From Escherichia coli (GTDB lineage Bacteria; Pseudomonadota; Gammaproteobacteria; Enterobacterales; Enterobacteriaceae): a stretch of 64,000 nt of DNA. Location of the stretch: NCBI RefSeq assembly GCF_001677475.2, contig NZ_CP015229.1; one strand, written 5' to 3'. Below, piece after piece: positions 19,605-20,798 of the stretch; position 1 is the stretch's first letter; the number at the start of each line of letters is the position of its first letter. Under the pieces are notes generated by a model, which saw nothing but the letters and a program-made list of their open reading frames with translations, was not told the origin of the DNA and searched no databases. A program made the position numbers and the translations under genes.

Positions 19605-20798
19605 ATGAAAAGAAAAGTTCTGGCAATGCTGGTCCCGGCGTTATTAGTTGCTGGCGCAGCAAATGCGGCTGAAGTCTATAATAAAGATGGTAATAAACTG
19701 GATTTCTACGGAAAAGTAGCAGGTCTGCACTACTTCTCTGACAACTCGGGCGCTGATGGCGATATGTCATATGCCCGTATCGGTTTCAAAGGCGAAACAC
19801 AAATCGCTGACCAGTTCACTGGTTACGGTCAGTGGGAATACAACCTACAAGCAAATGGCACAGAAGGCGATGGAGATAACTCTGCTACCCGTCTGGCATT
19901 CGCAGGTTTAGGTTTTGGTCAGAATGGTACTTTCGATTATGGTCGTAACTACGGTGTCGTATATGACATCGAAGCATGGACCGATATGCTGCCAGAATTT
20001 GGTGGCGATACCTACGCGGGTGCCGACAACTTCATGAACGGTCGTACCAACGGTGTTGCAACCTACCGTAACAATGGCTTCTTTGGTCAGGTTGATGGCT
20101 TGAACTTTGCTTTGCAATATCAGGGTAATAATGAAAGTGGTGGACCATTCGGGCAGGAAGGTTCCGGTAGTGGTGATGGCCGTAGCCTTTCCAAAGAAAA
20201 TGGTGATGGTTTCGGTATGTCAACATCCTACGACTTCGACTTCGGTTTAAGTCTGGGTGCTGCATATTCAAACTCTGATCGTTCAGATCGTCAGGTTGGA
20301 GTTGGTTTAAATGATCGTAACCATAGCAACAGAAATGCTGGTGGTGAAACCGCTGAAGCATGGACTGTTGGTGCAAAATATGATGCTAATAATGTGTATT
20401 TAGCAGCTATGTACGCTGAAACTCGCAATATGACCCCATATGGTGGTGGCGAGTTTGATAATGGTGAATCAAGATCAGCCATCGCTAACAAAACCCAAAA
20501 CTTTGAAGTTGTTGCTCAGTATCAGTTCGACTTCGGTCTGCGCCCGTCCATCGCTTACTTGCAATCTAAAGGTAAGGATTTAGGCGGTTGGGCTCATGAC
20601 GGTAATGGCGATCCGCGTTACACCAACAAAGATCTGGTTAAATATGTTGAAGTCGGTGCGACCTACTACTTCAACAAAAATATGTCCACCTACGTTGATT
20701 ACAAAATCAACCTGCTGGACAACGATGATGACTTCTACGAAGCAAACGGCATCGCTACCGATGACATCGTTGCTGTGGGCTTAGTCTACCAGTTCTAA
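19605..20798 (+). CDS. yedS: OmpC/OmpF-family outer membrane porin (intact YedS-like)
   Basis: ORF 19536-20798; start at [21 protein letters not shown] signal peptide after RBS; C-terminal ...VGLVYQF beta-barrel signature. Confidence 0.85.

Follow-up and report, generated by a model that had tools for sequence, protein, structure and literature searches.

The slot between drpB(yedR) and hchA of Escherichia coli K-12 is occupied by yedS (b4496, formerly b1964-b1966), which is annotated as a 1193-nt pseudogene. In the E. coli contig NZ_CP015229.1 an apparently complete porin gene is found in the equivalent place, raising the question of whether it is an intact yedS, whether its integrity has been maintained by selection and whether it could provide the strain with an additional porin. 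We addressed these points in a stretch of 64,000 nucleotides of this contig, hereafter the window, whose relevant features are collected in Table 1.

Locus and open reading frame

In the window, the porin gene is preceded by dcm, yedJ, drpB(yedR) and rseX and followed by hchA, hprS and hprR, an order identical to that of K-12 (NC_000913, 2030899-2038823), where rseX is likewise located upstream of yedS and on the same strand. The rseX/drpB(yedR)-yedS-hchA slot was also found in 24 sampled E. coli and in six other Escherichia genomes. The preliminary description of this DNA had placed the gene between yedR and hchA, and the synteny with K-12 is exact on both sides.

The alignment with K-12 yedS, which had been proposed as a check, was performed and returned 94.1% nucleotide identity over the coding sequence, as is fitting for the yedS orthologue. 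The only frame-breaking differences between the two sequences are the two lesions of K-12, a TAG stop in place of the CAG of codon 162 and the loss of one T at nt 663, and this stop and this frameshift account for the three fragments into which yedS was historically divided; the disruption of the K-12 copy, stated in the preliminary description, is real. The yedS gene of NZ_OZ197100, which carries the same TAG, is annotated with an "internal stop". Apart from its lesions, K-12 yedS has the slot, allele class, signal peptide and terminator of the window gene. Identity is unevenly distributed along the coding sequence, with long identical stretches over about nt 490-930 (the K-12 1-nt deletion excepted) beside only about 87% identity over nt ~100-480, which suggests that the window and K-12 alleles are mosaics of each other.

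Base-by-base alignment with K-12 showed a single open frame on the plus strand, with no internal stop or frameshift over its 397 codons, as had been described; the same alignment was used to look for a hidden internal defect, and none was found. A mechanical list of open reading frames opens this frame earlier, at an in-frame ATG at 19536. The ATG at 19605 is nevertheless supported as the true start by the AAGGGA motif, by the signal peptide that follows and by the RefSeq start in orthologues. Every allele class and every Escherichia species examined has the same signal-peptide DNA, with neither synonymous nor nonsynonymous differences in 12 comparisons, and the terminator is kept in all allele classes (flank identity 95-100%). 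That a 397-codon frame should match Porin_1 over its full length, at E 6e-144, is far beyond chance. The gene order and the absence from the window of both K-12 lesions show that the earlier observation and identification were correct and, on these sequence comparisons, the window frame is the intact orthologue of E. coli yedS, very probably encoding a general diffusion porin of the classical type.

Table 1. Features of the yedS region, in window coordinates
Feature	Position	Strand	Basis and details
rseX sRNA gene	19204..19293	+	Rfam RF01401, 98.7 bits vs gathering score 50; own terminator 19267-19289
CRP-type site TGTGATCTCGCGCACA	19308..19323	-	Sole match in the 64-kb window
Nearly invariant block, ~240 nt	19436..19673	+	Candidate promoter, 5'UTR and signal-peptide codons; 14-locus alignment, sliding identity
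Candidate sigma70 promoter	19485..19512	+	TTGTTA, 16-nt spacer, TAAAAT; 9/12 consensus matches
OmpR-type motif TGTTACAT	19486-19493	+	Overlaps the -35 element of the candidate promoter
Shine-Dalgarno AAGGGA	19592..19597	+	7 nt 5' of the ATG; direct reading
yedS CDS, intact	19605..20798	+	397 codons + TAA; general diffusion porin, allele class A
Signal-peptide codons	19605..19667	+	MKRK...ANA|AE; alignment with OmpC/OmpF/OmpN; cleavage at ANA|AE inferred from homology
Predicted RybB pairing site, CDS +4..+21	19608..19625	+	RNAduplex -17.2 kcal/mol, z -3.25
Codon 162, CAG (Gln), ORF nt 484	20088..20090	+	TAG in K-12 and NZ_OZ197100; alignment
TT dinucleotide, ORF nt 663-664	20267..20268	+	K-12 one T short, frameshift; alignment
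Intrinsic terminator of yedS	20841..20878	+	12-bp stem followed by T-run (20841-20872 ahead of the T-run); terminator scan

Protein family, pore residues and model

The encoded protein matches Porin_1 (PF00267) over residues 27-397, covering positions 1-337 of the 337-position profile (E 5.9e-144). With the NCBIfam "porin OmpC" subfamily model it scores 541 bits, above the cutoff of 484, and with the OmpF and PhoE models it stays under the equivalog cutoffs. Fifty porin chains of the PDB were matched, the best being OmpK37 (6v78, E 1e-146), with OmpK36 and OmpC next, down to E 1e-124. The alignment with the paralogues, another check that had been proposed, gave identities of 71% with OmpN, 70% with OmpK37, 67% with OmpC, 63% with OmpF and 61% with PhoE.

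The preliminary description had assigned the protein to the OmpC family, an assignment that holds at the family level given the subfamily score and fails for OmpC itself, of which YedS is a separate paralogue. OmpC proper is ruled out by its different locus (ompC lies beside micF and rcsD) together with the limited identity, and the RefSeq label "ompC" carried by genes of the yedS slot is an automatic subfamily name. YedS resembles OmpC (PDB 2j1n) in its family, in a near-identical signal peptide and N-terminus, in the PEFGGD motif and in the basic ladder, and differs in a mature chain that is 30 residues longer, with all the extra residues in external loops. The closest solved structure is OmpK37 of Klebsiella pneumoniae and the closest K-12 paralogue is OmpN, both of which have in common with YedS a long L4 and a C-terminal DDxFY segment. 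However, ompN is located elsewhere, beside micC and ydbK, and YedS has extra insertions in L5, L6 and L7 as assigned by the model; these different loci and insertions make YedS a paralogue of OmpK37/OmpN and not their orthologue.

An alignment with OmpF, OmpC and PhoE revealed that K16, R42, R82, R132, D113 and E117 (OmpF numbering) are all present, as is the PEFGGD motif in L3. Across 23 homologues, K37, D121 and R147 do not vary and R58, R96 and E131 reach a conservation of 90% or more; the pore residues as a set, the L3 motif and the terminal Phe are all invariant or close to it. The signal peptide aligns with that of OmpC by homology, and the chain ends in VYQF, so that the terminal Phe, the aromatic residue of the assembly signal, is present. 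The signal peptide and the Gly/Asn/Asp-rich loops noted at first reading are both found in the protein. AlphaFold2, run on an alignment of 23 sequences, gave a model with 16 barrel strands and a short N-terminal segment (22-25), with helical turns in the L3 region. The confidence of the model is moderate (pLDDT 65, pTM 0.67), low values being found only in the long loops and the signal peptide, and for this reason the model was used for topology only. A Foldseek search with it returned 6v78 at a TM of 0.87, and the top matches were all 16-strand porins (TMt 0.85-0.88), with dozens of OmpC and OmpF structures following OmpK37.

Upstream region and transcriptional control

The 600 nt upstream of yedS have a GC content of 29-33%, as compared with about 52-58% in the dcm-yedJ genes. 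They include most of a nearly invariant block (Table 1), which is conserved over all allele classes and Escherichia species, E. albertii included, with variable DNA on both sides, and which is almost invariant even at synonymous sites. The candidate sigma70 promoter inside this block is weak, and a consensus scan of the region upstream of yedS found a number of sigma70-like sites not above chance. The OmpR-type motif that overlaps it follows TGTWACAW, reported in two copies upstream of S. Typhi ompS1; the invariant block of the window has one. Since TGTWACAW occurs 7 times in the 64 kb against 6.8 expected, a single copy in a short invariant block is only suggestive. An 11-mer, ACATTTTGAAA, is common to the yedS upstream region and to OmpR box C1 of ompC (p about 0.06), but was rejected as evidence of an OmpR box because it arises in 6% of shuffles, and we retain it as a lead only. 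The CRP-type site coincides in position with a CRP footprint obtained in vitro and assigned to K-12 yedS, at 2033766.

The neighbouring rseX has been reported to be repressed by H-NS, with StpA as a backup. A table in PMC2731931 lists the gene as "yedS (ompS1)". Salmonella ompS1 is a quiescent gene, with H-NS/StpA as its silencers and LeuO and OmpR as its activators, a regulation documented for the Salmonella gene only. By analogy, OmpS1 and YedS would both be low-expression porins of the OmpC/OmpF family with AT-rich promoters. Such a promoter, together with the quiescence of Salmonella ompS1, makes expression of yedS under ordinary conditions uncertain. The preliminary description had the strain likely expressing an extra porin; extending the comparison with ompS1, the window strain can make one, but probably only under particular conditions.

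Small-RNA pairing

RybB is a sigmaE-dependent small RNA that acts in the decay of omp mRNAs. The predicted pairing of its 5' end with the first codons of yedS has an energy that is reached by 0.7% of dinucleotide shuffles and is comparable to those obtained for ompC, ompF and ompN, and no pairing was detected by RNAduplex for the RybB negative controls. RseX and MicC paired with yedS no better than with shuffles; in this yedS differs from ompC, which pairs with MicC. Warner's 2013 work is said to describe a MicF- and MarA-dependent control of yedS. The 5' 33 nt of MicF reached -10.2 kcal/mol (z +0.9) with the yedS leader, as opposed to -27.1 kcal/mol (z -5.2) with ompF, and direct pairing of MicF with the window yedS leader is therefore unsupported.

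According to PMC2731931, K-12 yedS mRNA is detectable and yedS(ompS1) mRNA drops on sigmaE induction, and RybB has been reported to accelerate the decay of Salmonella ompS mRNA. The predicted RybB site is consistent with both the sigmaE repression of yedS(ompS1) and the decay of the Salmonella mRNA.

Occurrence of intact copies

To estimate how common an intact copy is, we took alternate records from an evenly spaced ranking of the 5,046 E. coli records that matched. An intact porin is annotated at the slot in 14 of the 19 complete E. coli genomes sampled and a pseudogene in the other 5, giving a Wilson interval of roughly 51-88% for the intact fraction. An intact copy is thus the usual condition in E. 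coli, and K-12 is the odd one out, not the window strain. Outside E. coli, a YedJ-anchored genome scan returned Escherichia, Mangrovibacter, Klebsiella sp. and Erwinia, with no Salmonella among them, and the other Escherichia genomes that it recovered all have an intact frame at the slot (6/6).

Within class A, the allele class of the window and of K-12 (see below), 6 of the 11 alleles checked are intact and 5 are pseudogenes, a frequency of inactivation indicating that yedS is dispensable in many lineages. The lesions are independent and comprise the K-12 type (TAG and -1), the TAG alone, a -1 deletion at nt 606 in O157, and insertions of IS3 and IS2; IS1 insertions were encountered among the top matches for other segment classes. 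The closest allele in a complete genome is that of NZ_OZ197100 (99.1% identity), with its TAG at nt 484, and two further complete genomes, H56 and H57, stand at the same 99.1%. The flanks are at most 98.5% identical to any complete E. coli genome and, judged by this identity, the lineage of the window strain is not represented among them.

Public contigs that encode the exact 397-aa protein number 899. Papers citing Warner et al. (2013, Antimicrob Agents Chemother 57:1935; PMC3623324) credit that work with an active yedS that affects carbapenem susceptibility; the YedS concerned is reportedly a working porin encoded by an uninterrupted gene of clinical, non-K-12 E. coli, and the window gene is likewise uninterrupted. 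With an active yedS already published and the exact sequence on record in those contigs, the finding is known in kind: the intact yedS of the window is a correct, ordinary and already known observation.

Purifying selection and competing explanations

In the contigs examined among those that encode the exact protein, the gene is found at the same locus, with flanking DNA only about 94% identical to that of the window. That they simply belong to the window's own lineage was rejected, since their flanks have diverged by about 6%. Compared with one such copy (L003), the coding sequence shows 35 synonymous changes and not one nonsynonymous change, over 263 synonymous and 928 nonsynonymous sites, an outcome with a probability of ~1e-23 under equal per-site rates (hand arithmetic). 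Values of dN/dS range from 0.07 to 0.18 in comparisons with 11 other class-A alleles, among them those of E. albertii, E. whittamii and cryptic-clade genomes. When sites were partitioned by the topology of the model, dN/dS was 0.054 for the strands, 0.053 for L3, 0.002 for the periplasmic turns and 0.24 for the external loops, where all 129 gap codons are also located. Constraint that is matched in this way to the predicted topology is characteristic of a working porin exposed at the cell surface and, as read from these substitution patterns, the window gene is under strong purifying selection and clearly kept functional by it.

An intact gene may still be cryptic, that is permanently silenced, adding nothing to the outer membrane and conferring no phenotype. 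The AT-rich upstream region, the weakness of the candidate promoter, the reported repression of the neighbouring rseX by H-NS with StpA as a backup and the quiescence of Salmonella ompS1, which needs LeuO or OmpR, all speak for such a state. However, a gene that is never expressed would show neither an exclusively synonymous divergence of this size nor a dN/dS of 0.05 in the barrel, and its block of promoter, 5'UTR and signal peptide would not stay invariant across species. Moreover, the K-12 mRNA is detectable and responds to sigmaE (PMC2731931), and a YedS-like porin has been found in the outer-membrane proteome of STEC. We thus regard permanent silencing as unlikely. A second explanation is that the frame is intact by chance or through recent history, either as a relic evolving neutrally or as a copy repaired not long ago, and bound to decay like that of K-12. 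This would be in keeping with how common independent inactivations are in class A (TAG at nt 484, nt 663, nt 606, IS3, IS2) and with the TAG found in the closest complete-genome allele, but is made highly improbable by the identical protein encoded, with synonymous changes only, in a lineage whose flanks have diverged by ~6%, by the intact gene kept in all six other Escherichia genomes and by a constraint that tracks protein topology. Finally, the insertion or misplacement here of another paralogue (ompC, ompN, nmpC or a phage porin), to which the RefSeq automatic name "ompC: porin OmpC" and the NCBIfam OmpC subfamily could point, is already refuted by the exact K-12 yedS synteny on both sides, and a coding sequence 94% identical to K-12 yedS with long identical stretches, protein identities of only 61-71% with OmpC, OmpN, OmpF and PhoE, and the presence of the true ompC and ompN beside micF and micC elsewhere in the chromosome leave it with next to no probability.

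Divergent porin segments in the yedS slot

The comparison of strains revealed that the gene occupying the yedS slot varies greatly from one E. coli strain to another. Common to all, with roughly 90-100% identity, are the upstream region, the initial ~95 nt of the coding sequence and everything 3' of the stop, and the part encoding the mature porin falls into at least five classes, with proteins of 352-397 aa that are 60-72% identical to that of the window. Class A, which includes the window and K-12 alleles, resembles OmpK37/OmpN/OmpC and has PEFGGD in L3; the corresponding motif is PVFGGD in class B and VEWGGD in classes C, D and E, the last two of which most resemble OmpK35, PhoE and OmpF. 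Counting by Megablast the genomes that cover at least 80% of each variable segment, we found 1,661 for class A, 366 for class B, about 1,530-1,630 for classes C and D together and about 1,140 for class E, the five classes jointly accounting for about 88% of 5,426 genomes. Divergence is large even within class A, with a dS of about 0.43-0.64. No description of these segment classes was found in the searchable literature mentioning yedS. A study of the STEC outer-membrane proteome reported "a putative porin with 50% homology to YedS"; this porin may belong to one of the classes of this slot.

On sequence grounds, the pattern looks like a long-lived, recombination-shuffled polymorphism of a surface protein. 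We tentatively consider, as a possibility somewhat short of an even chance, that it is a genus-wide balanced polymorphism, in which an invariant expression module is combined with at least five ancient porin segments swapped by homologous recombination. The module would consist of the promoter, a 5'UTR containing the RybB site, the signal peptide and the terminator, and the segments would derive from two subfamilies, one OmpK37/OmpN/OmpC-like and the other OmpK35/PhoE/OmpF-like. Frequency-dependent selection exerted by phages, colicins or host immunity would maintain the classes, and the frequent knock-outs of class A would correspond to receptor loss. If this were true, the window allele would be one morph of a polymorphic slot system.

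Proposed function and implications

For the yedS of the window, taken as a functional gene, we propose that the Sec signal peptide is removed at ANA|AE, leaving a mature chain of 376 residues that, helped by the C-terminal YQF signal, would fold into a 16-stranded beta-barrel and assemble as a trimer. L3, with its PEFGGD motif and conserved Asp and Glu, would face the conserved basic ladder of Lys and Arg residues and form the constriction of a pore through which small hydrophilic solutes, beta-lactams among them, could diffuse. The long and variable external loops L4-L7 would be exposed to phages, colicins and antibodies. From the comparison with ompS1 we infer that expression is conditional, not constitutive: the AT-rich promoter is probably silenced by H-NS and subject to OmpR and CRP inputs, as in Salmonella ompS1, and RybB probably shuts off the mRNA during envelope stress.

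K-12 is confirmed as atypical, and the general porin genes at the disposal of the window strain include a fourth or fifth one. YedS could affect the entry of beta-lactams and carbapenems once OmpC and OmpF are lost, and could also be a receptor for phages or colicins, or an antigen. The name yedS does not designate one protein in different strains and, since RefSeq names the genes of the slot "ompC" or just "porin", the diversity of the segments matters for annotation. It also bears on resistance prediction, on phage host-range work and on studies of outer-membrane protein antigens, and the slot polymorphism is a more interesting lead than the intact copy itself.

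Allelic diversity at the yedS locus

Across E. coli strains, one and the same slot is occupied by mature-porin segments of at least five deeply divergent kinds (window 19700-20798; compared loci L015-L034). These segments are 352-397 amino acids long, share 60-72% protein identity with that of the window and fall into two porin subfamilies, class A, to which the window and K-12 belong, resembling OmpK37/OmpN/OmpC and classes D and E resembling OmpK35/PhoE/OmpF. Their two boundaries are sharp, the first at about nucleotide 95 of the CDS and the second at the stop codon; beyond them the flanking DNA is roughly 90-100% identical. 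Among 5,426 genomes, class A was found in approximately 1,661, class B in 366, classes C and D jointly in about 1,600 and class E in about 1,140.

For the 11 kb flank at window 8000-19100, all 5,373 complete E. coli genomes fall within the 95-99% identity band and none exceeds 98.5%; the lineage of the window is therefore without a representative in this collection, and could be Shigella or a divergent branch of E. coli. The identical 397-amino-acid protein is encoded on contigs whose flanking DNA matches the window at only about 94% identity and K-12 at about 93.6%; these contigs thus originate from a divergent Escherichia lineage. In one of them, the CDS (L003:4001-5194) differs from window 19605-20798 at 35 positions, all 35 synonymous. 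Several of the genomes with an identical YedS (L004-L007) lack hchA-hprSR on the 3' side of the porin gene (locus coordinates ~5200-9000), where an unannotated 458-amino-acid ORF is found instead, along with fragments of transposases (DDE_Tnp_1, Dimer_Tnp_Tn5).

A TAG at codon 162 (aligned with window 20088, where the codon is CAG) is common to the K-12 locus (L001) and NZ_OZ197100 (L002), and the 5' third of the gene in NZ_OZ197100 matches the window and not K-12. This stop codon is either old or was moved between backgrounds through intragenic recombination.

Regulatory region of yedS

Features upstream of and at the start of yedS
Feature	Window position	Description
rseX small RNA gene	19204-19293	Rfam, 98.7 bits; own terminator; in tandem, upstream of yedS
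CRP-type site	19308-19323	TGTGATCTCGCGCACA; sole match in the 64-kb window
Near-invariant block	19436-19673	Contains candidate promoter, 5'UTR and signal-peptide codons
Predicted RybB pairing site	19608-19625	CDS start, AAAGAAAAGUUCUGGC; complementary to the RybB 5' end

The rseX-yedS arrangement recalls those of ompC (micF) and ompN (micC), each porin gene having a small RNA gene upstream, although the micF/ompC and micC/ompN pairs are divergently transcribed whereas rseX and yedS lie in tandem. The CRP-type site coincides in position with a CRP footprint obtained in vitro and published for the DNA upstream of yedS in K-12; compared with that strain, the half-sites are kept but the spacer is different.

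The near-invariant block, about 240 nt long, is conserved in every allele class and in Escherichia species including E. albertii, synonymous sites included, and variation is free on both sides, just upstream (19293-19435) and in the part coding for the mature protein. This invariance could reflect constraint on regulation or, alternatively, recombination that homogenises the block.

The duplex predicted between yedS and RybB, a sigmaE-dependent small RNA, reaches -17.2 kcal/mol and equals those of ompC, ompF and ompN in quality. Such pairing at the CDS start would account for a published observation, the sigmaE-dependent decrease of yedS mRNA.
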